Of a stretch of 64,000 nt of DNA, positions 1,396 through 54,340 are shown in pieces. The notes beneath the pieces were generated by a model. It did no database searches, was not told the origin of the DNA, and was given only the letters and a program-made list of their open reading frames with translations. Each line of letters starts with the position of its first letter. Position 1 is the stretch's first letter. Source of the stretch: a virus; IMG/VR virus record IMGVR_UViG_3300018080_000004. One strand, 5' to 3'. The position numbers were made by a program, and so were the translations under genes.

Positions 1396-1424
1396 TTGAC
1401 AAGCGGGACACGATAGCCTAAGAT
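1396..1424 (+). promoter_or_regulatory. Sigma70-type promoter of the conserved-spacer family; probably gives a leaderless UDG mRNA
   Basis: TTGACA-17 bp (AGCGGGACACGATAGCC)-TAAGAT; ATG 6 nt after -10, no SD. Confidence 0.7.
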
Positions 1425-10132: not shown

Positions 10133-11131
10133 GTGGACAGGGAGAGTATCTACAAGCTGGCCTCCATCATGGGGGTCAAGGCCGGGAAGGGCCGGGGAGC
10201 TAACATTCTGATACAGTGCCCCCTCGCGCCGCACTCCGGCGGCCACGCCAGCGGGGAGGACAGCACGCCATCCTTCTCGATCCTTGTGGACGAGACCGGA
10301 CCCTCGGCCTGCCACTGCTTCGGGTGTGGGGTCCGGGGCACCCTCGTCTCGGTCCTGGCGAGAGCAGATAGGCAGTACGAGGGTTTCGACGAGGCCCTCG
10401 CCTTTGTCCGGCGCATCGAGAAGTATGACCTCGGTGCGGGGCTCGACCGGGCCCTTCACCACCGCCGGAAGAGGACCCAGAGGGACGAACCGTATGCGCG
10501 TACGCTTGCCCGCTTCGTGCGGGCCTGTCAGGTCCACGTGCCGGGCTATGCGCTGGAGCGCGGGCTCACGCGGGCGGAGATCGACCGATGGATGGTGGGG
10601 CTCGACGTGTTCGACTATCGGGCCACCTTCCCGGTCTGGGACCGTGGCGGGACCCTCATGGGCGTCATGGGCCGGACCGTTGTCGATGGGGTCGAGCCCA
10701 AGTACCTCGCCTACTTCGACTGGTCAACCGGGGAGCACTTCTACGGGGAGCACTCCCTGGACCTGACCATCGAGGAGGGGGTCCTCGTAGAGGGAACTCT
10801 CGACACGATCATCGCCCGGCGCTACCACCCGAACGTCCTTGGACTCATGGGTCTCCGGCTTACGCCGGAAAAGAGGACGAAGCTCAAGCGGTGGTTCGAC
10901 TCCGTTACGCTCCTCCTCGACGCCGACGAGGCCGGTATGTCCCAGGCCCTCTCCGAGGACGTTATGGCGATCAAAATCGGCGTGTGGCTCTCTCCCATCA
11001 CGCGCCTGTACGTGGCCGTGCTCCCTCCGGGCGAGGACCCGGCGAGCGCCCCAGACGCCATCCCAGAGGCTCTGAAAAATCGTGTCCTCTGGGACTCTCT
11101 TGGGCTTGACAAGCGGAAATTGATACGCTAA
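10133..11131 (+). CDS. dnaG: DNA primase (Zn-binding + Toprim)
   Basis: CP..H..S.SI..CHCFGCG zinc domain; VEGTLD, LDADEAG, EDP. Confidence 0.88.
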   Translation: MDRESIYKLASIMGVKAGKGRGANILIQCPLAPHSGGHASGEDSTPSFSILVDETGPSACHCFGCGVRGTLVSVLARADRQYEGFDEALAFVRRIEKYDLGAGLDRALHHRRKRTQRDEPYARTLARFVRACQVHVPGYALERGLTRAEIDRWMVGLDVFDYRATFPVWDRGGTLMGVMGRTVVDGVEPKYLAYFDWSTGEHFYGEHSLDLTIEEGVLVEGTLDTIIARRYHPNVLGLMGLRLTPEKRTKLKRWFDSVTLLLDADEAGMSQALSEDVMAIKIGVWLSPITRLYVAVLPPGEDPASAPDAIPEALKNRVLWDSLGLDKRKLIR

Positions 11132-11134
11132 AAT
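11106..11134 (+). promoter_or_regulatory. Conserved-spacer sigma70 promoter
   Basis: TTGACA-AGCGGAAATTGATACGC-TAAAAT. Confidence 0.7.
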
Positions 11135-11202
11135 TCAAGACGTTGAGAGCCTCACAGTAGGCTATTCCGCCTCTTAGCAGGCACAGTTTGGAGGAAAACA
11201 TC

Positions 11203-12069
11203 ATGGGTTTCGCAAGTCGTGGCCTCGGCGAGGCCGACAAGGTTCCCGCGTCTTCGCGGGTCAAACCGTCCTTCGAGAAGCGCCTCTTCCTTCGGCCGGG
11301 GGACGAGGTGGACATCGTGCTCCTGGACGACATCTCGTTCAACATCTGGGAGCACGGCATGTTCCTCAAGGGCGACAAGCAGGCCAGCAAGATCAAGTGC
11401 ACGTGCCCGGACGGCTCGGCCGACGGCGATCCGAGGGCCTGCCGCATCTGTAACGCCATGCTCCGGCACGACCTCATCGGGCGCCAGTGGCGCGGCTTCC
11501 TCACCGTCGTGGACATGACGAAGCGCACCTGGAAGGGCAAGACCTACGAGCACGTGAAGAAGCTCCTCCCGCTCGACAAGAAGACGGCCATGATTCTGGA
11601 GAAGAAGCGGGAGAAGCGGAGCTCGCTCGTGGGGGCTCAGTTCCACCTGTACCGGACCGAGCAGACGGCCTCCTCGGTCGGGGACGACTGGGAGCTCCTC
11701 GACATCGACGACCCGAAGCGGCGGTTCAAGAACTCGCCCCAGATCGACCAGACCATCGAGTGGGAGAAGAAGAAGAACGGTACCATCCTCACGCGGGCGC
11801 AGGCCCTCGCGCTCTTCTGCTCTCCCTACGACTACGACACGGTGCTCGCTCCCGACAAGAAGAAGACGGCCTACTTCCTGGCCTACATGGGCATCGAAGA
11901 CCAGACCAGCGGCGACGAGGCCGAGGCGGAGTCCGGGACGACCGTGAACTACGGGGACCCCGACACGTCTCCGGACGAGGGCGTGGACGACACTCCGGCG
12001 CCGCCTCCCCGCAAGAAGGCGGCCAAGAAGAAGGGCCTCAAGAAGGGGCTCAAGAAGAAGGGCAAGTAG
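11203..12069 (+). CDS. Putative single-stranded DNA-binding protein (Zn-containing, gp32-like) with acidic then Lys-rich tail
   Basis: SD GGAGG; EH...C.C...C.IC pattern; position between primase and polymerase. Confidence 0.6.
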   Translation: MGFASRGLGEADKVPASSRVKPSFEKRLFLRPGDEVDIVLLDDISFNIWEHGMFLKGDKQASKIKCTCPDGSADGDPRACRICNAMLRHDLIGRQWRGFLTVVDMTKRTWKGKTYEHVKKLLPLDKKTAMILEKKREKRSSLVGAQFHLYRTEQTASSVGDDWELLDIDDPKRRFKNSPQIDQTIEWEKKKNGTILTRAQALALFCSPYDYDTVLAPDKKKTAYFLAYMGIEDQTSGDEAEAESGTTVNYGDPDTSPDEGVDDTPAPPPRKKAAKKKGLKKGLKKKGK

Positions 12070-12076
12070 GCGATTC

Positions 12077-12210
12077 ACGGCGGTAGCTCAGTGGGAAGAG
12101 CGCCCCTCCGCCCTGGGTCGCGCAACCCAGGCGGGGCAGCCGGGCCGGTCGCGCAGGCCGGTCCGGCGGAGAGGGGGAGGTCGGAGGTTCGAGTCCTCCC
12201 CGCCGCGCCA
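12077..12210 (+). ncRNA. tRNA-like RNA with the anticodon loop replaced by two hairpins
   Basis: Acceptor ACGGCGG/CCGCCGC-G-CCA, D arm TAGCTCAGTGGGAAGAGC, T arm GGAGG-TTCGAGT-CCTCC; ~64-nt insert in the anticodon arm. Confidence 0.8.
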
Positions 12211-12212
12211 GC

Positions 12213-14426
12213 ATGTACGACGACGTGGACAAAATTCTGGGGTCGGAGTGGGTCGCGGTGGACACCGAGACCGACGACGACGACGCCATCCCGGCGTGCA
12301 AGAAGACCCTCCGGGGCGTCTCGCTCGCCTGGGGGAATCCGGAGCACCCTGTCGGGCGCTACTGGTCCTTCGAGGAGGACGCTTACGCCTGGAAGACGTT
12401 CAGGAAGCGCATCCTTGCCCCTCTCTTCGAGCGCGAGGAGGCGAAGCTCGCGTGGTGGAATTACAAGTTCGATGCCCAGGTCCTCGGAGCTCGCGGCCTC
12501 CACCCCAAGGGGGTCATCTACGACGGCATGCTCCTCTCCTACCTCATCGACGAGACCGAGCGGCACGCCCTCAAGGCGTGCGCGAAGCGCGACCTCGGAG
12601 TTACCACGGCCCTCACCTACCGGGAATCCCAGAGGGAGGTCGAGGCCATCTGGAAGCGCGGGCAGGCCAATATCAAGAGGATGGTGAACATCGCCTGGGC
12701 CCTCTACCGCGACCACCGGAAATCTTCCCAGGTCATCGAGAGCTTCATCGACCCCCGCTGGCCCTTGGCGAAGCAGGCGGCTTTTCGGCTTCCTCCAGGC
12801 ATGAAAAAGGCAGACGTGCTGGAGGCGGCCGACAAGTTCGTTCGGCCCAAGGTGGAGGCGGTCCACGAGGCGCGGCGCCGGGAGCTTTTCGAGACTTACG
12901 CCACGCACGACGCCGTGTGGACGCTCCAGCTCGTGTGGAAGTACCTCCAGGTGGTCCAGGAGGCGGACTTGGAGGGCCTGTTCCACGAGACGGAGGTCCC
13001 TGTCGTGGGTGTCATCGCCGACATCGAGACACGGGGCGTCCGGATGGACGTGGGGATTCTCCAGCAACTCAAGCAGGTGTACGGCGTGGAGGTCGAGAAG
13101 ATCAGGAAGGAGATCGCTGCCGAGTATCCCGACCTGAATCCCTCCTCTCCTGACCAGCTTCGGGCCATCTTCTGGGGTGAGATGGAGATTGAGCCGCCCC
13201 AGTGGGCTTTCACGAAGAAGAACAGGCGCAAGGGGAACCTGGACCCTGTGAAGTTCGCCTCGACGGACAAGAACGTCCTCTCATGGCTCATCGAGGAGCA
13301 CCAGAACCCCCTCGCCGAGAAGATCGTGCGGCTCCGGAAGATCGAGAAGATCAAGGGCACCTACATCGACGACCTTCTGGAGAGGGCCCTGGCGGACCCG
13401 GAGCACCGAATACACTGCTCCTTCAACCCGGTGGGGACCGTGAACGACCGCTGGAGCTCGGACAACCCCAACCTCCAGAACCAGCCGCGCCCCGGCACGA
13501 CGGAGGGGGCTATCGGGAGCGTCTACATCCTTCCGGGCACGAAGAAGGAGATCAAGGTGCCCTCGATCCGCCGGGCGTATATTCCGAAGGAGGGGTACAA
13601 GTTCCTCAACGCCGACTTTTCGCAGATCGAGCTCCGTTTCCTCGCCCACGTGACCGAAGACCCGGCCCTCCTCGCGGCGTACCGGACGTGGCGGTGCTAC
13701 TCGTGCGGGGCCGAGGGCGAGACGGACACGGCCATACACGTCTGCCCGTCGTGCTGGGAGGACGAGGTGGAGGCCAAGGGGCATGAGGAGATTGTCCACG
13801 GGTTCGTGTTGGGCGAGGACATCCACTGGCAGACCGCCGTGGCGACGGGCCTCGTGGACACGTACGGGCCGGTCGAAGGGCGCTACAAAGCCAAGTCTGT
13901 GAATTTCGGGCTCATATACGGGATGTACTACAAGCTTTTGGCGGCCATGATCGACGTGCCCCTCGACGTGGCCGAGGAGGTTCACACTCGTTTCTTCTTG
14001 AAGTATCGCGGGGTGCGCTCCTTCCATCACTGGGTGCGGAGGACCTTGGAGGAGCGGGGATGGTTCCGCCTGTTCAGCGGGCGCAGGCGCCACTTCACGA
14101 AGGAGTGGGACCTCTACCACAAGGGGGTCATCGACGACTTCCAGCTCGGAGCGGTGGTCCGAGAGGCCACGAACAGCATCATCCAGGGAGGGGCGGCCAT
14201 CCTCATGAAGCGGGTGGTGCGCGACCTGGGCCGGGCGTTCCGGAGCGGGGAGTTCGGGGACACCGGGATCGTCCTCCAGGTGCACGACGAGATTCTCGTC
14301 GAGTTCCCGGAGGAGCGCGAGGAACAGGTCCGGGGGAAGGTGGTGGACACCATGGAGCACGTCGCTCAACTCAAGGTGCCCATTGTCACGGACCCCCAGA
14401 TCAAAATGGCATGGTCAGCAAAGTGA
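12213..14426 (+). CDS. polA: DNA polymerase family A (3'-5' exo + polymerase, no 5' nuclease) with CxxC-CxxC insertion
   Basis: VAVDTET, NYKFD, YATHD, NPNLQNQP, ADFSQIELR, KSVNFGLIYG, QVHDE. Confidence 0.95.
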   Translation: MYDDVDKILGSEWVAVDTETDDDDAIPACKKTLRGVSLAWGNPEHPVGRYWSFEEDAYAWKTFRKRILAPLFEREEAKLAWWNYKFDAQVLGARGLHPKGVIYDGMLLSYLIDETERHALKACAKRDLGVTTALTYRESQREVEAIWKRGQANIKRMVNIAWALYRDHRKSSQVIESFIDPRWPLAKQAAFRLPPGMKKADVLEAADKFVRPKVEAVHEARRRELFETYATHDAVWTLQLVWKYLQVVQEADLEGLFHETEVPVVGVIADIETRGVRMDVGILQQLKQVYGVEVEKIRKEIAAEYPDLNPSSPDQLRAIFWGEMEIEPPQWAFTKKNRRKGNLDPVKFASTDKNVLSWLIEEHQNPLAEKIVRLRKIEKIKGTYIDDLLERALADPEHRIHCSFNPVGTVNDRWSSDNPNLQNQPRPGTTEGAIGSVYILPGTKKEIKVPSIRRAYIPKEGYKFLNADFSQIELRFLAHVTEDPALLAAYRTWRCYSCGAEGETDTAIHVCPSCWEDEVEAKGHEEIVHGFVLGEDIHWQTAVATGLVDTYGPVEGRYKAKSVNFGLIYGMYYKLLAAMIDVPLDVAEEVHTRFFLKYRGVRSFHHWVRRTLEERGWFRLFSGRRRHFTKEWDLYHKGVIDDFQLGAVVREATNSIIQGGAAILMKRVVRDLGRAFRSGEFGDTGIVLQVHDEILVEFPEEREEQVRGKVVDTMEHVAQLKVPIVTDPQIKMAWSAK

Positions 14427-15799
14427 ACAAGGTGGCATGGCTCGATCAGATGGTCCGGGTGCGGAAGGACGCCCTCCCGGTCGGGGTCGAGGACCGTATT
14501 CGGGACTCTCTGACCCTCAAGCAGAAGAAGTTCGGAGACGATCCACAGCTCGTGGAAACGTACCGCGAGAACGGCACCTTCCTGTGGCTCCCGCGCTTCT
14601 ATGGGGCGAACCTCCTCCGGCGGCACGGCTTCGAGATCGTGGACAAGCGGTCCGATGGCTTCGGGTTCGACATGGAGTTCCGGGGAGACCTCGGCGTCGC
14701 CCCCTTCCCGTCCGGGCAGCCGAAGTTCGTGGAAGACATCTTGGGCGGACTCCGGGAGAATGGTCTCGGCGGCTTTGGGGTGGCCGATTGCGGGATGGGG
14801 AAGACAGTCATGGGTTCGGCAATCTCGGCCGCCCTCGGCCGGGCCACGCTCGTGCTCGTGCACAGGTCCCCCCTCGTGAATCAGTGGCGGGAGTCGTTTC
14901 GGCGGCACGTCCTCGTGGACGGGCGCCCCCCGAAAGTGGGGCTCGTGCGGGAGGACCGGTGCGACTACGGGCCCCAGTGGCCCATGTCCATCGCCATGAT
15001 ACAGTCGCTCCACGCCAGGACGTACCCGGAGGACTTCTATCGGGCCTGGGGCCTCATCCTCGTTGACGAGACGCACCACATACCGGCGCGGACGTGGCAG
15101 GGGGCCATGACCCAGTTCTCGGCGAGGTACGCGGTGGGGCTGACAGCGACGCTCCGTCGAAAAGACGGCCTCGGACCGGTCTTCAATCACGCCCTGGGCA
15201 ACGTGCTGGGGCGCCTCCACAGGGACAACGTGAAGGCGGACGCCCAGTTCTACGGCCTGCATTTCCTGGGCGGGGTGAAGAGCATGCAGTCGTTCGGGTC
15301 CCTGAATCGGACCCTCGTGGAGAAGCGGCTCGCGGCCATGCCGGGCCGGAATGAGATCGTCGCGGCCGAGATCGAGAAAGCTGTCCTGGCCGGGCGCAGG
15401 CGTATCATGGTGTTTTCGGGAATCCGGGGGCACCTTGCCGAGCTGTACGAGCTCCTCCCGCTGGAGGTCCGGCGCCGGACTGGGTTCTACGTGGGCCGAA
15501 GGAAGCAGGAGCAGCTCGACCGGGTGGCGCAAAAGAACGTCATCCTTGCCACGTACGGGATGGCGGACGAGGGCCTGGACATCGGCGACATAGACGCGGT
15601 TTTCCTCACCACCCCCAGGCCGGACGTGGAGCAACCGGTGGGGAGGGCCCTCCGGTTCTACGTGAAGAAGATGCCCCCGATCATTGTGGACTTTGTGGAC
15701 CGCATCGGGTCGCTCGTGGACTGGGCGGAGCGGAGGAGGACCCAGTATATTCGGATGGGGATCAGGCTGCGAAATAACATCCCCTCGGCAAGGAGATAG
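14423..15799 (+). CDS. Superfamily II DNA helicase (UvsW/XPB-like)
   Basis: CGMGKT, DETHH, GLTAT, EGLDI, QPVGRALR; GTG start overlapping the pol stop (alt. ATG 14411). Confidence 0.88.
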   Translation: MNKVAWLDQMVRVRKDALPVGVEDRIRDSLTLKQKKFGDDPQLVETYRENGTFLWLPRFYGANLLRRHGFEIVDKRSDGFGFDMEFRGDLGVAPFPSGQPKFVEDILGGLRENGLGGFGVADCGMGKTVMGSAISAALGRATLVLVHRSPLVNQWRESFRRHVLVDGRPPKVGLVREDRCDYGPQWPMSIAMIQSLHARTYPEDFYRAWGLILVDETHHIPARTWQGAMTQFSARYAVGLTATLRRKDGLGPVFNHALGNVLGRLHRDNVKADAQFYGLHFLGGVKSMQSFGSLNRTLVEKRLAAMPGRNEIVAAEIEKAVLAGRRRIMVFSGIRGHLAELYELLPLEVRRRTGFYVGRRKQEQLDRVAQKNVILATYGMADEGLDIGDIDAVFLTTPRPDVEQPVGRALRFYVKKMPPIIVDFVDRIGSLVDWAERRRTQYIRMGIRLRNNIPSARR

Positions 15800-18574: not shown

Positions 18575-18603
18575 TTGACAAGTGTTTCGTGATATGCTAT
18601 AAT
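18575..18603 (+). promoter_or_regulatory. Conserved-spacer sigma70 promoter (perfect consensus boxes)
   Basis: TTGACA-AGTGTTTCGTGATATGC-TATAAT with extended TG. Confidence 0.85.
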
Positions 18604-23249: not shown

Positions 23250-25218
23250 GGAGCAGCTCGAAGCGGTCTTCCTGGACATCGAGAAGGGAAGCGACCGCCT
23301 CTTCTCCCAGCTAACCCCCATCCAGCGGGACTGGTTTATCCGACTGTTCGAGGGCCTTTCCGACGGCGACGAGGCCATGCTGGAGGCCCTCTACGCCCAG
23401 GACTACGACCATATCCCGGTGCCCCCGGAGGTCTTCTTCACCGAGCCCGACTACCTCGGCCACATGGGGAAGAACCTTTACAAGGCGTGGTGGCCGCACG
23501 TGCTCAACATCTGCGACCCCCAGCGGAACGTCTCCGAGGTGATCTTCACGGGGGCCATCGGGTTCGGCAAGTCGTTCGTAGCGAACGCCCTCATCCTCCC
23601 CTACAAAATTTATTGGCTCTCGTGCCTCAAGAATCCGGCCCGGTACTTCGGCCTCGCCGATAACACGAAGATAGTCTTCGGGGTGTACGCCATCACGAAG
23701 GACCATGCCGAGGAGATCGGGTTCTACGACCTCCGAGATCAGGCCATCGACCAGAGCCCCTACTTCCGCTATGCCTTTCCAAGGGTCCCGAACGACGGGA
23801 ACTCCCTCGTATTCGACAAGGGCATCCGGGTCCTCGTGGGCTCGAAGGAGCTCCACGCCATCGGGCACAACCTCTTCGCTATCTCCATGGACGAGCTCAA
23901 CTTCTACGAGCAGGGGAAGGGGACGAAGCGCAAGGCCCACGACCTCGTGGCGGCCGTCTCCAGGCGCACCGAGTCCCGTTTCCGCACCGAGTCCGGCGTG
24001 GTGGCGGGGTTCGTGGTGCTCATCTCCTCGAAGCGAACCGAGACGGACTACCTGGAGGCCCGGCTCCGGAAGGTCAAAAAGCTCCCTGGAGTGTACGTCG
24101 TGGATGCGGCCTTCTGGGACTTCGACGAGAAGACGATCTATTCGGGCATGAAGTTCCGGGTCCAGCTCGGCGACGAGTTCCGGGATTCCAAGCTCCTCGA
24201 CGAGGTGGAGTTCGACGCGGACGGAGTGGAGGTCCTCGACATCCGGGAGATCGACAAAGAAGACGACACTGCCGAGGTGGTCCCCGTCCCTGTCGAGCAT
24301 TACAAGGCGTTCGTCGAGGACCTCGACGGCTCCATCCGGGACATCGCGGGCCGCAGCACGCGGGGGTTCACCCCCTTCTTCGGGAACAAGCAGCTCGTTC
24401 ATGACATGGTGGACGCCTCCCTCCCGGCGGCGTTCGACGCCGAGCGCATCCCCATCTTCGTCCAGGACAGTCGGCAGGTCATCGAGGCGTTCAACGTCAA
24501 GCGCCTGTGCCGGGTGCACATGAACCGATGGAAGCCCACCCGGCACGCCTCGGCGCCCCGGTACATCCATATCGACCTCGCCAAGAACAAGGACGCGGCC
24601 GGGATTTCCATGCTCCACCCGTCGAGCCACTTCATCACTAAGGAGGAGGACGACGAGGGGCGCCCCCGCGAAGAGGACGGCGTGCCCATCATCACGGTGG
24701 TCAAGGAGCTGGAGGTAGACTTCGCGCTGGCAATCACCGCCGGGCCGAGGGGGGAGGAAATAGACTTCGAGAAAATCCGGAAGTTCATCATCTTCTTGCG
24801 GAATATCGGCTTCTGGGTTCGCCGGGTGACCTACGACTCCTGGGAGTCCGTCGATTCGATTCAACTGCTCCGGGGCGCGAAGTTCAACGCGGACGTGCAG
24901 TCGGTGGACCGCACGGCCATCCCCTACAAGACCCTTCGCCGGGCCCTGGCGGAGAGGCGGATCAAAGCCCCTCCGAACGAGCTCCTCCGGATGGAGCTCA
25001 TCGGCCTGGAGCACGACGTGGAGGCCGATAAGGTGGACCACAGGGCGGGGGAGTCGAAGGACGTGGCAGACGCTTTGTGTGGGGCGGCCTACGGGTGCCT
25101 CACGGACAAGATCAAGCCGGGTGACGTGCCTCCGGAGCACCGGGGCGGGGGCGACTCGACAAGGGCCTCGAAGTACGACAAGTACCTCGACCAGCTACAG
25201 GGGGTTGCCAAGAGATGA
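23203..25218 (+). CDS. terL: Terminase large subunit
   Basis: TGAIGFGKS Walker A, SMDE Walker B, IHIDLA, TYDSW, VDH...SKDVADA nuclease motifs. Confidence 0.9.
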   Translation: MQHPKREKIATAPLTEEQLEAVFLDIEKGSDRLFSQLTPIQRDWFIRLFEGLSDGDEAMLEALYAQDYDHIPVPPEVFFTEPDYLGHMGKNLYKAWWPHVLNICDPQRNVSEVIFTGAIGFGKSFVANALILPYKIYWLSCLKNPARYFGLADNTKIVFGVYAITKDHAEEIGFYDLRDQAIDQSPYFRYAFPRVPNDGNSLVFDKGIRVLVGSKELHAIGHNLFAISMDELNFYEQGKGTKRKAHDLVAAVSRRTESRFRTESGVVAGFVVLISSKRTETDYLEARLRKVKKLPGVYVVDAAFWDFDEKTIYSGMKFRVQLGDEFRDSKLLDEVEFDADGVEVLDIREIDKEDDTAEVVPVPVEHYKAFVEDLDGSIRDIAGRSTRGFTPFFGNKQLVHDMVDASLPAAFDAERIPIFVQDSRQVIEAFNVKRLCRVHMNRWKPTRHASAPRYIHIDLAKNKDAAGISMLHPSSHFITKEEDDEGRPREEDGVPIITVVKELEVDFALAITAGPRGEEIDFEKIRKFIIFLRNIGFWVRRVTYDSWESVDSIQLLRGAKFNADVQSVDRTAIPYKTLRRALAERRIKAPPNELLRMELIGLEHDVEADKVDHRAGESKDVADALCGAAYGCLTDKIKPGDVPPEHRGGGDSTRASKYDKYLDQLQGVAKR

Positions 25219-28202
25219 GAGCAGCCGACCTACTCGAAATGGTGATGTTTCCGTGGTCCAACCTCGCCCGCATCCAGGGCCTCACGCGGCGCCCGGAGAT
25301 GGGGCGCAGCTACCCGATGCCCCAGCCCAGGGACAAGGCCCGCTCCAGGGACCCCATCGAGCGGGGCTCACGGTCCGGCGACTGGGTGGACCAGATCATC
25401 GGCACCCAGCGGCAGTACACGCGGCTGGAGCTCTACGCCATCTACCGCGAGATGGACATGGACCCTCTCATCACGTCGGTTCTGGACGCCTACGGCGAGG
25501 ACGCCACCCAGCGGGATTTCGAGAACGGGCGCACCGTCTGGCCGACGGCCAGGAACGGCGACGTGAAGAAGATCATTCTGCGGTGCCTCGACCGCATGCA
25601 AGTCGAGGACGTGGCCTTCCCCATCGTCCGAGCCACCTGCAAGATGGGGGACCAGTTCGAGCGCGTGGTGGCGGCCAAGAACGCGGGCATCCTCCACATT
25701 CGGGGCTACGATCCGTGGGACGTGGCCCGGATCGAGGACGAGGACGGCCGCCTGGAGGCGTTCTCCCCGTGCGACGCCGAGGGGCGCCCTACGAGGGTGC
25801 AGGACAACGCCGTTCCGTTCTACAAGGTCCTCCATTTCCGGCTCCGGGGGCAGAAGCGGAACGACATCTATGGGTCGTCGCTCCTTTGGGGGAGCCGCGA
25901 GAAGTGGAGGCAGCTCCAGCTCATCGAGGACCAGATCGTCCTCCAGAGGCTCCTCCGGCGCCCGGACCGGCTCCTAATCCTCATGGACGTGGGCGGGATG
26001 GCCCTCGCGGAAGCCTATGAGGCGTGCGTGGCCCCGGATTCCTGGATCACAACGGAAGACGGCGTACAGCATGCCGATACGGTGTGGGCCAGGGTGGAGG
26101 AGGGGGAAAACGTCCTCGTCCGGTCCGTTCGTGGGTGGGAGACCATCACCAAGGCCCGAAAGGTGGCGAAGGAGACTTCCCGGTGGACGTTCGAGCGCGG
26201 CGTGATGCTGGACGCAAGCGGGGATCACCGCGTCGCCATCTGGACCCCGGAGCAGGGGATCGACTGGAAGCGGCTCGAACACCTGGAGCCGGGTGACGAC
26301 GTGGTGGTGGCCGACGAGCCGGATGAGGCGTTCGTGCCCGACGACGACCTCGCTTACCTCGTGGGTCTCTTCGTCGGTGATGGTCATTGGCAGCGCAGGA
26401 ATCAGACGGACTACTCCGTCTTCATGCTCGACGCTCACGAACGGGCGGAGGGCTACGCCGAGATTGCCAGGATTGTCGATGAGATCGACCCGGATGGCTG
26501 GACGCGGGGGTGGTCGCAAGGACGCCTGTGCGTCAAGAGTCCTGTCCTGACCAGGGCGCTCGCGGAGGCGGGGTTCTCTCCCGGAGCAAAGACCGGGAAA
26601 ATCCCGGCCCACGACCGCTGGCTCATGGCGGGGGGAATGAACGGTATCCTGTCCTACGTTCAGGGCCTTATGGACGCCGAGGGGCACGGAGGGAAGGATT
26701 GCGTTTCAATTCGCATGCGCGACCGTCTTCCCCTGGAGTACGCCCACCGCGCCCTCTGGCGTGTCGGGATTCACAGCACTTTGGAGGAGTACGTTGCCCA
26801 GGGCAGCCCCGTCTTCATGCTGACAATCTCCGGGAAGGATGCCGACCGCTATCTGGTGCAAGTGGGCTTCCGGCTGCCGTGCAAGCAGGGAAACAAGACA
26901 CCGGCGAACAAGGATCGTCAAGGGACGCCGGAGTCGGCTCGTTTCGTCTGTGAGATGATCGAGGCCGGGGTGCCTCCCATGATGCTCGCGGCGGCATTCG
27001 ACGTACCCCGCTCGCGTATCTACCAACTCAAGTGCGGCCAGAAGCTCCTGACCTGGACGCGCCTTGCCAAGGGAGTGAAGCTCCTTCTCTTCGGAGCTCC
27101 TATCGCCGGGGGTGCGGTCTCTGTGGAGGCGATGGAAATCTGCAAGAAGTACGGGCCGATGGAGGGCTTCTCCACGGCCAAGTTCGTCGGAAGCGAAGCT
27201 CTCGGCGTGCAGACCCTCATCGACTTCACCGTCGAGGGCGGCGAGTCCTTCGTGGCGAATAACATCCTCACCCACAACTGCAAGGAGTGGGAAGATCGCA
27301 TCTACAAGGAGCACAACGTGGACCCGGTGTCCGGCCTCTTCACGAGCCAGGGGATGCCCCTCCACGAGGCGCGGGACCTCATCCTGCCCATCGGCCAGGA
27401 CAATCAGACCCGCATCGAGAACCTTCCGGCGACCCAGGGGAACGACCTCTTCCGCGACTACGAGATCATCCTGGGCCGCCTCCTGGGCGGCCTGAGAATC
27501 CCGAAGGGCTATCTGGGCTTCGAGGGCCAGTACGAGCCGAACATGAGCCTGGGGAAGCAGGACGTTCGGTTCGCCAAGACGGCCACGCGCATCCAGCGGG
27601 CCTTTCTCGTCGAGCTCGTCCGGGCGTGCATGATCGACCTCGCTTTCCACAACCTGGACCCCTTCGACGAGGAGAACGCTTTCGAGCTCCACATGAGCCC
27701 CGTGAGCGCGTTCGCCGAGATCGAGCGGGCTGAGCTGCTCCAGATGCGCGTGGACCTCATGGACCGGCTCTCGCGCCTGGGACAGGACATGCAGTTCAAC
27801 CCGGACGTGTGGACCACCTACGTCCTGGAGGAGGTGGGGCGTCTCCCGAAGGACATGGTGGAGAAGCTCCGGTCCGGGAGCAAGGAAGCGGCCACGGAGG
27901 CCGTTGAGGCGATCAGGGAGGACCCCAAGGCCCTCGCCGGGCTGACTCTCATCATGGAGGGGACGCCCTCGGTGGGAACCGGAGGGGTGGTCAACACCAT
28001 GAAGGGCGGCCGGGAAGCGGCCCAGAAGGAGCTCAAGGAGGCTGTCGAGGGGCTGGCGAGCGCCGAAGACCTGAAAGCCTGGGAGAACCTCAAGCCCATC
28101 GCTGCCGGTGCCAACATGGTGCGGGGCGAGGAGCTCAAGCGGGCGCAGAGGCGCCTCCAGGCGATCCGGGGCCTCGCCCGTGTCCCGGCGGTGAGCGCAT
28201 GA
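25215..28202 (+). CDS. Portal protein (T4 gp20-like) interrupted by an intein
   Basis: YREMDMDPLI..LD, VLHFR, YGSSLL, RRPDRL..MDVG, LLGGLRIPKGYLG, QDVRFA; follows TerL. Confidence 0.88.
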   Translation: MRAADLLEMVMFPWSNLARIQGLTRRPEMGRSYPMPQPRDKARSRDPIERGSRSGDWVDQIIGTQRQYTRLELYAIYREMDMDPLITSVLDAYGEDATQRDFENGRTVWPTARNGDVKKIILRCLDRMQVEDVAFPIVRATCKMGDQFERVVAAKNAGILHIRGYDPWDVARIEDEDGRLEAFSPCDAEGRPTRVQDNAVPFYKVLHFRLRGQKRNDIYGSSLLWGSREKWRQLQLIEDQIVLQRLLRRPDRLLILMDVGGMALAEAYEACVAPDSWITTEDGVQHADTVWARVEEGENVLVRSVRGWETITKARKVAKETSRWTFERGVMLDASGDHRVAIWTPEQGIDWKRLEHLEPGDDVVVADEPDEAFVPDDDLAYLVGLFVGDGHWQRRNQTDYSVFMLDAHERAEGYAEIARIVDEIDPDGWTRGWSQGRLCVKSPVLTRALAEAGFSPGAKTGKIPAHDRWLMAGGMNGILSYVQGLMDAEGHGGKDCVSIRMRDRLPLEYAHRALWRVGIHSTLEEYVAQGSPVFMLTISGKDADRYLVQVGFRLPCKQGNKTPANKDRQGTPESARFVCEMIEAGVPPMMLAAAFDVPRSRIYQLKCGQKLLTWTRLAKGVKLLLFGAPIAGGAVSVEAMEICKKYGPMEGFSTAKFVGSEALGVQTLIDFTVEGGESFVANNILTHNCKEWEDRIYKEHNVDPVSGLFTSQGMPLHEARDLILPIGQDNQTRIENLPATQGNDLFRDYEIILGRLLGGLRIPKGYLGFEGQYEPNMSLGKQDVRFAKTATRIQRAFLVELVRACMIDLAFHNLDPFDEENAFELHMSPVSAFAEIERAELLQMRVDLMDRLSRLGQDMQFNPDVWTTYVLEEVGRLPKDMVEKLRSGSKEAATEAVEAIREDPKALAGLTLIMEGTPSVGTGGVVNTMKGGREAAQKELKEAVEGLASAEDLKAWENLKPIAAGANMVRGEELKRAQRRLQAIRGLARVPAVSA
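26025..27278 (+). mobile_element. Intein (418 aa) with LAGLIDADG homing endonuclease, in the portal
   Basis: N-terminal CVAPDSWI, block B SGDH, YLVGLFVGDG and YVQGLMDAEG, C-terminal DFTV..ESFVANNILTHN|C. Confidence 0.92.
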
Positions 28203-30234: not shown

Positions 30235-30518
30235 GCCGGATCATGCTCGAAATCGACGGTCTCTACTACCCCCAGGCCGTTTTCGACTCTCTCTTGAATC
30301 AGGTGATGGGGGAGGTCCTCCAGGGAATCATTGACAAGTCGTCGGGCCCCCGGAACGCGGCGGCCCGGATCGCTCGGCTCAAGAGCCCCGCCGTCCGGGA
30401 CCGGGTGTACCGCGAGGCCATGCGCCGTACAAAGGCGTCCGTGCCCGGTATCAAGGCCGAGGAGATTGCCGACGGGTACACCCTCCTGCCCCAAAAACGT
30501 CCCAAAAAAACCGCTTGA
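30216..30518 (+). CDS. Hypothetical protein
   Basis: ORF with SD AAGGA filling the gap before the promoter. Confidence 0.5.
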   Translation: METPPVSRIMLEIDGLYYPQAVFDSLLNQVMGEVLQGIIDKSSGPRNAAARIARLKSPAVRDRVYREAMRRTKASVPGIKAEEIADGYTLLPQKRPKKTA

Positions 30519-30543
30519 CAAGCCCACCGTGATACCATAAGAT
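30515..30543 (+). promoter_or_regulatory. Conserved-spacer sigma70 promoter
   Basis: TTGACA-AGCCCACCGTGATACCA-TAAGAT, A-tract upstream. Confidence 0.75.
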
Positions 30544-33422: not shown

Positions 33423-35450
33423 GTGCTTACGAAGCAGCATATCGTGGGGCTGCGGAAACGACTGGCAGCCCTCCAAGCGGCCGGGGTGAGCGCGGCGCCC
33501 ACGATCATCTCCGGTCCGGATGTCCAGTTCAAGAAGAAGGGCGTCTTCCGGGTCTATGGTGTCGCCGGGGTGTGGGAGTACGCCGGGATGCCACGAGGTC
33601 TTCGGAAGGAGATCAAGGAGCGCGGGCTGGAGTGGTGTCTCGTGCAGCGCCTCCCAGGTTCCCCGGCCGAGGCGCACGAGTGGGTCAGCGTGAGCACGCG
33701 GGACCCCAGGACTGGGGATAGCACGCCGGTGGGTGAGTTCCACGACGGGGACGACTGGGTGCATCTGTCCGAATACGGCGGAGACTCGGACCGTCTCGCG
33801 GAGTTCTGCCGGGTGGTGGAGGGGGTTCTCAAGGACGTGGCCCGTGTCGAGGCGGTCCGCCAGGGCCCGGACGACGAGTTTCAGGTCCTCTCCGTCTTTC
33901 CCCTTGTCCGGACTGTGGGCGCGGCGCTCTCGTTCGTCCGGGACCTCGTGGACGAGGGCATCCTGACCCAGGAGGAGGCCCTCCTTCGTATTTCCCCCAG
34001 CGACGTGGCCTCCATGGAGACGCCCACGCTGGACGCCATTCCGGAGGACGCCATCGCCAAGGGGACCCCGGCGGCGCCTGGGGTTGCTATCGGGCCGGTG
34101 GCGTGGGGGGCGGATGAGGCGGTCCAACACTACGCCGAGCACGGGGACAGGGCCGTCCTCGTGGTCAAGATGACCTCCCCGGAGGACGTGTCAGCTCTTC
34201 GCTACTGCTCCGGGATCGTGACGGAACGCGGGGGCTTGACCTCCCATGCGGCCGTGGTGGCTCGTGGGATGGGGCTCCCGTGCATCGTCTCCGCCAAGGG
34301 CATCGGCAGCCGACGTGGGGAGAACCTCACCATCTCCATGGACGGATCGACTGGCCTCCTTTTCGAGGGGGCGGTCCCTCTGGCGGCCCTTGCCGGAACG
34401 GCCATCCTCGACGAGGTGCTCCGCTGGGTCGAGCCCGGCATGCGGGTGTACGCCAACGTGGACACCCCGGACGCCACGGAAGAGGCCGTAAGCGCGTACG
34501 GTGCCCAGGGGGTGGGGCTCTGCCGGACCGAACACCAGTTCTTCGGGAAGGACAGGATCGAGCCTTTCCGGCGCATGCTCATGGCCGACACGGACGCCCT
34601 CCGGAAGGCCGCCCTCATTCGGCTCCTGGAGTTTCAGCGCGAAGACTTCCAGGGCATCTTCGAGGGGGCGGACGGTGCGCCCGTTACAATCCGGCTTCTG
34701 GACGCGCCGCTTCACGAGTTCTGGGGGGAGGGGGCAGCGGCCGACCTGGGAATTCCGAACACGGCGGTGCAACGCTACACCGAGGCCCTTCGGGAGTCGA
34801 ACCCCATGCTGGGGCACCGGGGCTGCCGCCTGGGGATCACCGCACCGGAAGTCTACGCCATGCAGACCCAGGCCGTCGCCGAGGCGGCCAAGAAGGTCGA
34901 AGGGGCGCGGCCCAGGATCATGGTCCCCCTTGTGGCGTCGGTGCGCGAGCTCATCACTCTCCGGGCCCTCGTGGAGGACATCCTGGAGAAGGTCCTCGGC
35001 AAGAGGGCTGCCAAGGCGGTCCCCATCGGGACCATGATCGAGACTCCCAGGGCGTGCCTCACGGCCGATGAGATCGCCCACCACGCCGACTTCATGTCCT
35101 TCGGGACAAATGACCTGACCCAGATGGTCTGGGGCTTCTCCCGCGACGACGCGGAGAAGTGGATGCCACGATACTTGGACCTTCGGGTCCTCCAGGCCGA
35201 CCCGTTCGCCACGCTCGATGTCCGGGGGGTGGGGCGTCTTATCCGACTGGGCATCGAGCTGGCACGGGCGGTTCGTCCGAAGATCGAGATCGGCGTGTGC
35301 GGCGAGCACGCGGCCGACCCCAGGTCCATCACGGCCTTCGCCCACCTGGGGGTGGACTACATCTCCTGCTCCCCCTCACGCCTCAAGATGGCGAGGCTCG
35401 CGGCGGCGCAGGTAGCGGTTCGAGGGAAGGTAACATGCGGCTCCGTCTGA
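33423..35450 (+). CDS. ppdK: Pyruvate phosphate dikinase-like PEP-utilising enzyme with a shortened/degenerate N-terminal nucleotide-binding domain
   Basis: GGLTSHAAVVARG, GLCRTEH, IRLLD, ESNPMLGHRGCR, GTMIETPRA, SFGTNDLTQ, GVCGEH. Confidence 0.88.
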   Translation: MLTKQHIVGLRKRLAALQAAGVSAAPTIISGPDVQFKKKGVFRVYGVAGVWEYAGMPRGLRKEIKERGLEWCLVQRLPGSPAEAHEWVSVSTRDPRTGDSTPVGEFHDGDDWVHLSEYGGDSDRLAEFCRVVEGVLKDVARVEAVRQGPDDEFQVLSVFPLVRTVGAALSFVRDLVDEGILTQEEALLRISPSDVASMETPTLDAIPEDAIAKGTPAAPGVAIGPVAWGADEAVQHYAEHGDRAVLVVKMTSPEDVSALRYCSGIVTERGGLTSHAAVVARGMGLPCIVSAKGIGSRRGENLTISMDGSTGLLFEGAVPLAALAGTAILDEVLRWVEPGMRVYANVDTPDATEEAVSAYGAQGVGLCRTEHQFFGKDRIEPFRRMLMADTDALRKAALIRLLEFQREDFQGIFEGADGAPVTIRLLDAPLHEFWGEGAAADLGIPNTAVQRYTEALRESNPMLGHRGCRLGITAPEVYAMQTQAVAEAAKKVEGARPRIMVPLVASVRELITLRALVEDILEKVLGKRAAKAVPIGTMIETPRACLTADEIAHHADFMSFGTNDLTQMVWGFSRDDAEKWMPRYLDLRVLQADPFATLDVRGVGRLIRLGIELARAVRPKIEIGVCGEHAADPRSITAFAHLGVDYISCSPSRLKMARLAAAQVAVRGKVTCGSV

Positions 35451-43961: not shown

Positions 43962-44052
43962 GCCGGGCTGGCGCAAAGGCAGACGCAGCCTCTTAGAAAG
44001 GTGGATTCCCCCTCGGAATCAGTTACGGGTTCGAGTCCCGTGCCCGGCACCA
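43962..44052 (+). tRNA. tRNA-Leu (anticodon UAG, reads CUA)
   Basis: GCCGGGC/GCCCGGC acceptor, A73, encoded CCA, loop CTTAGAA, long variable arm, GGTTCGAGTCC. Confidence 0.9.
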
Positions 44053-45720: not shown

Positions 45721-45749
45721 TTGACAAGCGGTCCGTGATACCGTACAAT
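45721..45749 (+). promoter_or_regulatory. Conserved-spacer sigma70 promoter
   Basis: TTGACA-AGCGGTCCGTGATACCG-TACAAT. Confidence 0.82.
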
Positions 45750-54309: not shown

Positions 54310-54340
54310 TTGACAAGCGGACCGTGAGACCCCATAATAT
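54310..54340 (+). promoter_or_regulatory. Conserved-spacer sigma70 promoter
   Basis: TTGACA-AGCGGACCGTGAGACCC-CATATAAT. Confidence 0.78.

Follow-up and report, generated by a model that had tools for sequence, protein, structure and literature searches.

The polA locus and its tRNA-shaped element

The IMG/VR virus record IMGVR_UViG_3300018080_000004 comes from an uncultured sediment phage. The 64,000 nucleotides (nt) of it that we analysed, referred to here as the window, contain the gene of a family A DNA polymerase, polA, and immediately upstream of its start codon a 134-nt element that has the shape of a tRNA and carries two hairpins in the place of the anticodon loop (Table 1). Both lie in a replication operon with the order DnaB helicase, RNase H, primase, P0002, element, PolA, ResIII helicase and UvsX-like recombinase. 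An earlier note, written from the letters of this DNA alone, had described a tRNA body, two hairpins, an encoded CCA and the ATG of polA 2 nt later, and direct reading confirms each of these parts. The acceptor stem is formed by ACGGCGG (12077-12083) and CCGCCGC (12200-12206), with six Watson-Crick pairs and an A1xC72 mismatch. A complete D arm follows (GCTC/AGTGGGAA/GAGC, 12086-12101), then the two strands of the anticodon stem, CCCCT (12103-12107) and GGGGG (12173-12177), the variable loop AGGTC (12178-12182) and the T arm GGAGG/TTCGAGT/CCTCC (12183-12199). The 3' end consists of G73 (12207) and the encoded CCA (12208-12210), after which GC (12211-12212) leads directly to the polA ATG at 12213.

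Table 1. Features of the polA locus, in window positions
Feature	Position	Strand	Remarks
Sigma-70-type phage promoter	11106..11134	+	TTGACA-17-TAAAAT; only promoter-like site upstream of the element
Upstream gene P0002	11203..12069	+	Function unassigned; phrog_17226; lysine-rich C-terminal tail
Whole tRNA-shaped RNA	12077..12210	+	Based on Rfam tRNA match (28.8 bits), own covariance model (130.8 bits) and pair counts
Anticodon stem	12103..12177	+	Closes a three-way junction where the 7-nt anticodon loop would be
Hairpin 1	12108..12134	+	Lower stem CCGCC/GGCGG, bulged C, upper stem TGGGT/ACCCA, loop CGCGCA
Hairpin 2	12139..12167	+	12-bp stem GCCGGGCCGGTC/GGCCGGTCCGGC, loop GCGCA; 5 of 12 pairs changed on both sides
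Spacer GC, CCA to polA start codon	12211..12212	+	2 nt; 2 nt in L018, 1 nt in L001
polA	12213..14426	+	Family A DNA polymerase with 3'-5' exonuclease domain; no Shine-Dalgarno sequence

The earlier note had proposed a check by tRNA finders and Rfam, and its outcome is divided. ARAGORN in default mode makes no tRNA call at 12077-12210. The Rfam tRNA model RF00005 aligns end to end with 12077-12207 (model positions 1-71), places a 64-nt insertion in the anticodon loop, and scores 28.8 bits, which is 0.2 under the curated cut-off of 29 (E = 7e-4). This match was recovered in a 701-nt search; whole-window Rfam scans, whether with gathering cut-offs or in E-value mode, lose both the element and the phage's tRNA-Leu. 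In the window phage, as in the two related lineages described below, the cloverleaf features of RF00005 are all present: an acceptor of 7 base pairs (bp), a D arm with G18G19, a 5-bp T stem, a loop of the TTCRANY type and a variable loop of 4-5 nt. All nucleotides of the tRNA tertiary contacts are retained (U8, A14, G18G19, G53:C61, T54-A58 and C48), as are the features that tRNA-processing enzymes read by shape, namely the stack of the 7-bp acceptor and the 5-bp T stem, a T loop of canonical form, G18G19 in the D loop, the 5-nt variable loop and N73-CCA. Four DNA sequencing runs yielded no contig of a close variant spanning the element. Run contigs with joints at 12102/12178 and 12104/12176 proved to be ordinary tRNA-Arg-like genes of other organisms, with D and T arms in common with the element.

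Conservation and covariation

A search of 5.8 billion proteins returned only six close or moderate relatives of polA, and the contigs of these relatives were compared with the window. The same element stands ahead of polA in only two related lineages, one represented by L018 (polA 82% identical) and the other by L001 and L139 (72%). From the D arm to the T arm the three lineages measure 84, 88 and 87 nt, with 64-68 nt replacing the anticodon loop, and the gap between the CCA and the ATG is 2, 2 and 1 nt in the window, L018 and L001. A DNA pattern specific to this clade recovered from metagenome contigs only the L001 phage again (as L139), and the 185,579 genomes searched gave no match. When 11000-15000 was compared with isolated phages by megablast, none matched, and tblastn with polA gave at most 30% identity, to Thermus phages and gut phages. 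Judged from these searches, the design of the element is conserved yet limited to one small clade of uncultured phages, known from metagenomes of sediment and seawater.

A covariance model derived from these lineages sets them apart: it gives 117-135 bits for the three and at most 57 bits, the level of an ordinary tRNA, for every other tRNA or insert-bearing tRNA that was fetched. Two 13-mers shared with other contigs, GCCGGTCGCGCAG with L108 and GCGGGGCAGCCG with L121, were rejected as signs of homology, as the model scores these loci no better than ordinary tRNAs. A pattern search of IMG/VR with GGCGGGGCAGCCG...GGTTCGA was equally unproductive, with all 13 contigs beyond the known relative being chance matches in coding sequence.

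In the model-guided alignment of the three lineages, 89.8% of the alignment cells hold standard pairs; sliding the partners lowers this to about 50%. Among the 43 pairs, 12 have changed on both sides with pairing kept, of which five belong to hairpin 2, three to the acceptor, two to the anticodon stem and one each to hairpin 1 and the T stem. The covariation values were reached by none of 500 shuffles. For the window and L018, the homologous cloverleaf with its two hairpins lies within 4-5 kcal/mol of the minimum free energy (MFE). The compensatory changes in three lineages support the view that the element is under selection as a structure. The earlier note had allowed that related phages might carry an ordinary tRNA here with a decaying insert; what they carry is the same design with compensatory changes.

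The twin-hairpin insert

The fold of the insert beats that of its shuffles (z = -2.9). In the predicted fold it forms a three-way junction in which hairpin 1 stacks directly on the anticodon stem, without 3-nt bulges. A 7-bp form of hairpin 1, CCTGGGT/ACCCAGG, is also possible; the bulged-C form listed in Table 1 is more stable and is also retained in the relatives, where the lower stem reads TCGTCC/GGGCGA (L018) and TCGCC/GGCGG (L001).

Both hairpins of the window phage carry the apex GTCGCGCA, at 12117 and at 12148, an octamer that is not enriched in the window (7 copies versus 4 expected). This identity of the two apices is special to the window phage; in L018 and L001 the two loops differ from each other, and it is the hairpin-2 loop motif, CGYGCA, that is invariant across the three lineages. 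The compensatory changes that the earlier note had proposed to look for among homologues were thus found, and its conserved GCGCA loops survive in part, in hairpin 2 and not as a twin apex outside the window phage. Its "duplicated binding loops" likewise hold for the window phage and not for the relatives, where the loops are complementary rather than identical.

Within each phage the two hairpin loops are mutually complementary, as GCGC:GCGC, UGCAC:GUGCA and UGCGC:GUGCA (4, 5 and 5 bp; loop-shuffle p = 0.04, 0.006 and 0.03). Because the loops of the relatives are complementary and not identical, a contact between loops is favoured over two copies of one protein site. The complementarity suggests a kissing contact, or dimerisation via the palindromic loops. 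The loops probably form a compact kissing module, and we speculate that such a module could bind a regulator. A dispersed-repeat origin of the hairpins, like that of a miniature inverted-repeat transposable element (MITE), found no support in a further copy anywhere in the window, and matches to an antisense or complementary partner of the element elsewhere in the window were at chance level.

Decoding capacity and other RNA classes

In its intron mode ARAGORN reads the three homologues as Arg(gcg), Phe(gaa) and Ser(cga) and places the intron of each at a different site. We enumerated all 7-nt loops that a common excision would leave: none has U33 in all three lineages, each is without U33 in at least two of the three, and no common excision site yields U33 together with a purine at 37 across the three. 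The discriminator differs between the lineages (N73 is G, C and U), pair 1:72 is AxC, GxG and C:G, and pairs 2:71, 3:70 and 4:69 flip between lineages, so that no synthetase identity is conserved. A G3:U70 pair, a long variable arm and a consistent G-1 are absent from the three lineages. On these comparisons the element is without a usable anticodon loop and cannot decode. The earlier note's view of it as a tRNA-shaped RNA without such a loop is upheld by the fit to Rfam with its 64-nt insert and by the absence of any common excision that restores the loop. The decoy functions that the note had suggested fare less well. An anticodon nuclease would find no anticodon loop to cleave here, which makes a decoy for such enzymes implausible, and the variable discriminator and top acceptor pairs argue against a decoy for a specific synthetase.

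Other classes of RNA were also compared. ARAGORN finds no transfer-messenger RNA (tmRNA) here; at 3:70 the pair is G:C or C:G, no part of the D arm is missing, and the insert contains no open frame with a stop. There is no Rfam match to YrlA/Y RNA (RF02553), and the ends of the RNA form a tRNA acceptor stem with CCA, not a Ro-binding stem.

tRNA bodies with inserts are not rare among phage contigs. A loose pattern (a tRNA D arm with a T arm 72-100 nt on) matched more than 116 IMG/VR contigs; the flanks contain a perfect 7-bp acceptor stem in 59 of 120 such matches, and many of these contigs have Rfam tRNA matches of 119-137 nt inside tRNA arrays. By its layout the phage element belongs to this loose kind of insert-bearing tRNA look-alike, with an insert that is specific to its clade. 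The IMG/VR loci L023-L137 include many tRNA scaffolds with 45-75 extra nt between the D and T arms. Among their inserts, recurring sub-types are a CATGTNNGTG hairpin followed by ACAGCAA, possibly a pseudoknot, and a GTTAYYTC...AGGTC type.

Operon context and the polA start codon

The strong sigma-70-type motif of the promoter ahead of P0002, TTGACAAGCGG...GTGATAC...TAnnAT, has about six copies in the window (1396-1424, 11106-11134, 18575-18603, 30515-30543, 45721-45749 and 54310-54340), and the same motif stands ahead of the P0002 homologue of L018; a copy in this relative lies at 1842. P0002 begins with an ATG at 11203 that is preceded by a good Shine-Dalgarno (SD) sequence, GGAGG, and ends with a TAG 7 nt before the element. 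Neither a promoter nor a U-tract terminator was found between P0002 and polA, and hence the element is transcribed inside the replication operon. In both related lineages a hairpin that is rich in GC and lacks a U tract stands between the stop of the upstream gene and the element, its end exactly 4 nt short of the latter (L018:2831-2857 and L001:2836-2859); this hairpin is absent in the window. Within P0002, a tandem 27-nt repeat at 12009-12062 encodes the lysine-rich tail (KKAAKKKGLKKGLKKKGK), and a contig in sequencing runs X2 and X3 has an extra AAG behind 12039.

Most genes of the window have an AGGAGG-like SD, with anti-SD duplexes of -8 to -13 kcal/mol for most of them, versus -2.2 kcal/mol at best for the polA ATG; the earlier note had seen no obvious SD at polA, and the calculation agrees. 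Since no stop codon overlaps the polA ATG, termination-reinitiation (translational coupling) is excluded. An alternative polA start at the GTG of codon 16, with GGAG 9 nt upstream, was rejected: it would lose the strand before the exonuclease DxE motif, and the codon is GTC in L001. The phage also has an ordinary tRNA-Leu(UAG) at 43962-44052 (ARAGORN), behind which 21 nt with a GGAGGAG SD precede the next ATG, and from this spacing we conclude that abutting a start codon is not this phage's habit. A layout of the leaderless-mRNA type occurs at 1396-1433, where exactly 6 nt separate the -10 box TAAGAT from the SD-less ATG (1431) of a gene of the uracil-DNA-glycosylase superfamily (1431-2276).

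Other genes of the window and its relatives have features of their own. The ResIII helicase gene that follows polA contains an intein in L018 and a Hint/LAGLIDADG insert in L019, and in the window (14060-15799) it has neither. Elsewhere in the window, an intein that includes a LAGLIDADG endonuclease domain splits a T4-like portal gene (25215-28202). There is also a gene for a phosphoenolpyruvate (PEP)-utilising enzyme (33423-35450, 675 amino acids) with mobile and PEP-binding domains, which is unusual for a phage.

A hypothesis of tRNA-shaped punctuation

We propose, with a confidence that falls a little short of even, that the element is a non-decoding, tRNA-shaped punctuation mark whose excision by tRNA-processing enzymes would leave a near-leaderless polA mRNA. 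The cleavages and the mode of translation of polA are what we infer from the arrangement of the locus. Hypothetically, RNase P would cut the 5' end of the element and separate the upstream mRNA, which in L018 and L001 would then end in a protective hairpin. The tRNA 3'-end machinery of the host would cut at the CCA or 1-2 nt beyond it. These two steps would yield a stable RNA about 134 nt long together with a polA mRNA whose 5' end is the AUG or lies within 2 nt of it, and this released mRNA would be translated as a leaderless message. On an uncut transcript, the AUG would lie against the stable acceptor/T helix with no SD and would initiate poorly, so that processing would gate polymerase synthesis. 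The twin hairpins, in turn, would keep the excised RNA out of translation.

The earlier note had suggested a processing element that frees a near-leaderless polA mRNA, and the support for this is circumstantial: in three phages the CCA lies 1-2 nt before an SD-less ATG, this part of the operon has no promoter of its own, and two relatives have the upstream hairpin. The placement is that of a processing signal, with the element set between the P0002 stop, 7 nt away, and the polA ATG, 2 nt away, and with the sole promoter further upstream. A more ambitious hypothesis, which we regard as possible but doubtful, is that the phage punctuates its replication operon as mitochondria do. In other words, an anticodon-less mimic would be cut by host tRNA enzymes to give a leaderless polymerase mRNA, and its kissing twin-hairpin domain would set the amount of polymerase, as a sensor or operator that responds, for instance, to the polymerase itself or to the lysine-rich P0002.

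Several observations weigh against punctuation. Relatives whose polA is 50, 49, 42 and 33% identical have short intergenic regions with no tRNA-like element; these distant relatives manage without it. A processing signal alone needs neither a D arm nor a conserved two-hairpin insert, and thus a processing role does not explain the function of the insert. Where bacteria encode the CCA, their initial 3' cut often falls a few nt downstream (P. acnes RNA-seq, PMC3848588). Such a downstream cut could hit the polA start codon here and might destroy the message rather than create it. Leaderless translation with a leader of 1-2 nt is inefficient in some hosts. Among the sequencing runs listed as containing the sequence there is no RNA run. 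As to the structure itself, the covariation comes from only three lineages, with weak statistics and an alignment that was fitted to the structure. The L001 copy folds poorly in silico (-46.9 kcal/mol for the homologous structure versus an MFE of -58.7 kcal/mol; z = -0.24), with internal loops in its hairpins.

If the processing model is true, the phage would provide a case from a bacterial virus of tRNA punctuation that gives a leaderless mRNA for an essential replication enzyme, and the maturation of host tRNAs (RNase P and the 3'-end enzymes) would be linked to the control of phage DNA polymerase synthesis. What is predicted for the 134-nt element is clear: cleavage at two sites, a need for the acceptor stem and contact between the loops.

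Alternative explanations

Another explanation, to which we give limited credence, is that the element is a free-standing small RNA that acts in trans. Its tRNA body would then be a scaffold for processing, stability and perhaps CCA repair, and its twin hairpins a protein dock, a sponge for enzymes or toxins that recognise the tRNA elbow or acceptor end, or the contacts of a dimerising RNA; the adjacency to polA would reflect genome compaction. Such a role would fit an insert whose topology and length are conserved with compensatory changes, with an invariant CGYGCA loop on hairpin 2 and loops that are complementary in all three lineages, and it would fit the scaffolds with inserts of 45-75 nt that other phage contigs carry in arrays, away from polymerase genes. 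However, it leaves unexplained why polA has no SD and why the gap of 1-2 nt between CCA and ATG stayed constant while polA fell to 72-82% identity. The search for a partner was also fruitless: RtcB, RNA ligase, Ro60/TROVE and a CCA-adding enzyme were not found among the 53 open reading frames (ORFs) of the window or in a 116-kb, 85%-complete relative, and the window holds no antisense partner. Nor is the insert common to any other insert-bearing phage tRNA sampled, given the gap in scores between at most 57 bits and 117-135 bits. A real tRNA gene with a phage-type intron, like the "enigmatic introns" of Lak megaphages, which is removed to yield a decoding tRNA, seems to us improbable. Introns in phage tRNA genes have been reported (PMC6784885), the insert occupies the usual site of tRNA introns in a body that is otherwise complete with its CCA encoded, and the T arm and variable loop resemble those of tRNA-Arg genes of other organisms in the same samples. 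Against this, the anticodons that ARAGORN implies (Arg, Phe and Ser) are inconsistent, and for that reason we reject the intron as the best reading; no common excision gives U33 and purine 37, and the changing discriminator and first acceptor pairs fit no single amino acid identity. The predicted fold has no bulge-helix-bulge, no Rfam intron or ribozyme family matches, 64 nt is far below the size of a group I intron, and neither an RtcB nor an RNA ligase was found among the genes surveyed above.

We assign a similarly low probability to a translational operator of polA in a tRNA frame, whose hairpins would bind the polymerase or the lysine-rich upstream protein and repress polA. The element does lie directly upstream of the SD-less polA, and in L019 and L020, whose polA is 50% identical, the start codon is inside a strong hairpin (CCGGGCCGTG/CACGGCCCGG and CCGGGCCAC/GTGGCCCGG) with a 5' strand that resembles hairpin 2 of the window, GCCGGGCCG. 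Yet the hairpins of the element are 45-100 nt upstream of the AUG, with the T arm and the acceptor strand between, and the shared GCCGGGCC is short and GC-rich and may be due to chance. The start-codon hairpins of the two distant relatives (L019:2964-3020 and L020:2959-3020) show compensatory changes of their own and may be candidate translational operators in those phages. Least probable of all, and in our opinion very much so, is a decaying tRNA pseudogene with a neutral insertion. It would account for the A1xC72 and G1xG72 mismatches in two of the three lineages, for an Rfam score just below the cut-off and for the weak in silico fold of the L001 copy. It does not account for 12 compensatory double changes with 90% of cells paired, for the retention of every tertiary-contact nucleotide, or for an insert whose length stayed constant within 4 nt while the flanking proteins fell to 72% identity.

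Comparison with known systems

Plant mitochondrial t-elements are tRNA-like cutting signals for RNase P and RNase Z that define mRNA ends (Forner et al. 2007, PMC1920247). The mascRNA of MALAT1 (Rfam RF01684) does the same for the end of a long non-coding RNA, and the mitochondrial model of tRNA punctuation is a further parallel. Like t-elements and mascRNA, the phage element is tRNA-shaped, does not decode and forms part of a larger transcript, where it marks the border between genes. In t-elements and mascRNA, too, the next functional RNA directly adjoins the 3' end, and the mRNAs released in mitochondria are leaderless. In contrast to t-elements and mascRNA, the phage element keeps a full D arm, an encoded CCA and a large conserved two-hairpin domain, and its cleavage is only predicted; its match to the Rfam mascRNA model is 16 bits against a cut-off of 42.5. 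To our knowledge, punctuation by an anticodon-less tRNA mimic has not been described in a bacterial phage, and our literature searches turned up no report of a tRNA mimic in a phage that is joined to the start codon of a polymerase.

Phage T4 offers two partial parallels. Its stable RNA species 1 and 2 (rnaC and rnaD) belong to the T4 tRNA cluster and have no assigned function. They too are encoded by the phage, resemble tRNAs without decoding and presumably owe their maturation to the tRNA machinery, as we propose for the element; they have no link to a polymerase start codon. Like the element, the gp43 operator of T4 and RB69 is a structured RNA that immediately precedes the gene of a phage DNA polymerase and could control its translation; it differs in being a single small hairpin that overlaps the SD and has no tRNA shape. 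Y RNAs of the YrlA type (RF02553; Chen et al. 2014) likewise mimic the tRNA elbow with the anticodon part exchanged for another module. In YrlA, however, the acceptor is closed and both ends of the RNA lie in the Ro-binding stem, whereas the ends of the phage element form a normal acceptor with CCA; YrlA also has a linked Ro60/TROVE gene, and none was found in the window or the relative.

The tRNA genes with "enigmatic introns" of Lak megaphages (Devoto et al. 2019, PMC6784885) and the insert-bearing tRNAs of IMG/VR share with the element a phage tRNA body with tens of extra nt between the D and T arms, and they too are missed by bacterial tRNA finders. These genes sit in tRNA arrays and their extra nt were read as introns of decoding tRNAs, whereas the phage element is solitary, lies in a replication operon, touches the polA start codon, has no recoverable anticodon and has an insert of its own. 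It adds a well-defined and comparatively supported case to the growing, unexplained set of phage tRNA look-alikes without an anticodon that tRNA finders miss or mis-annotate.

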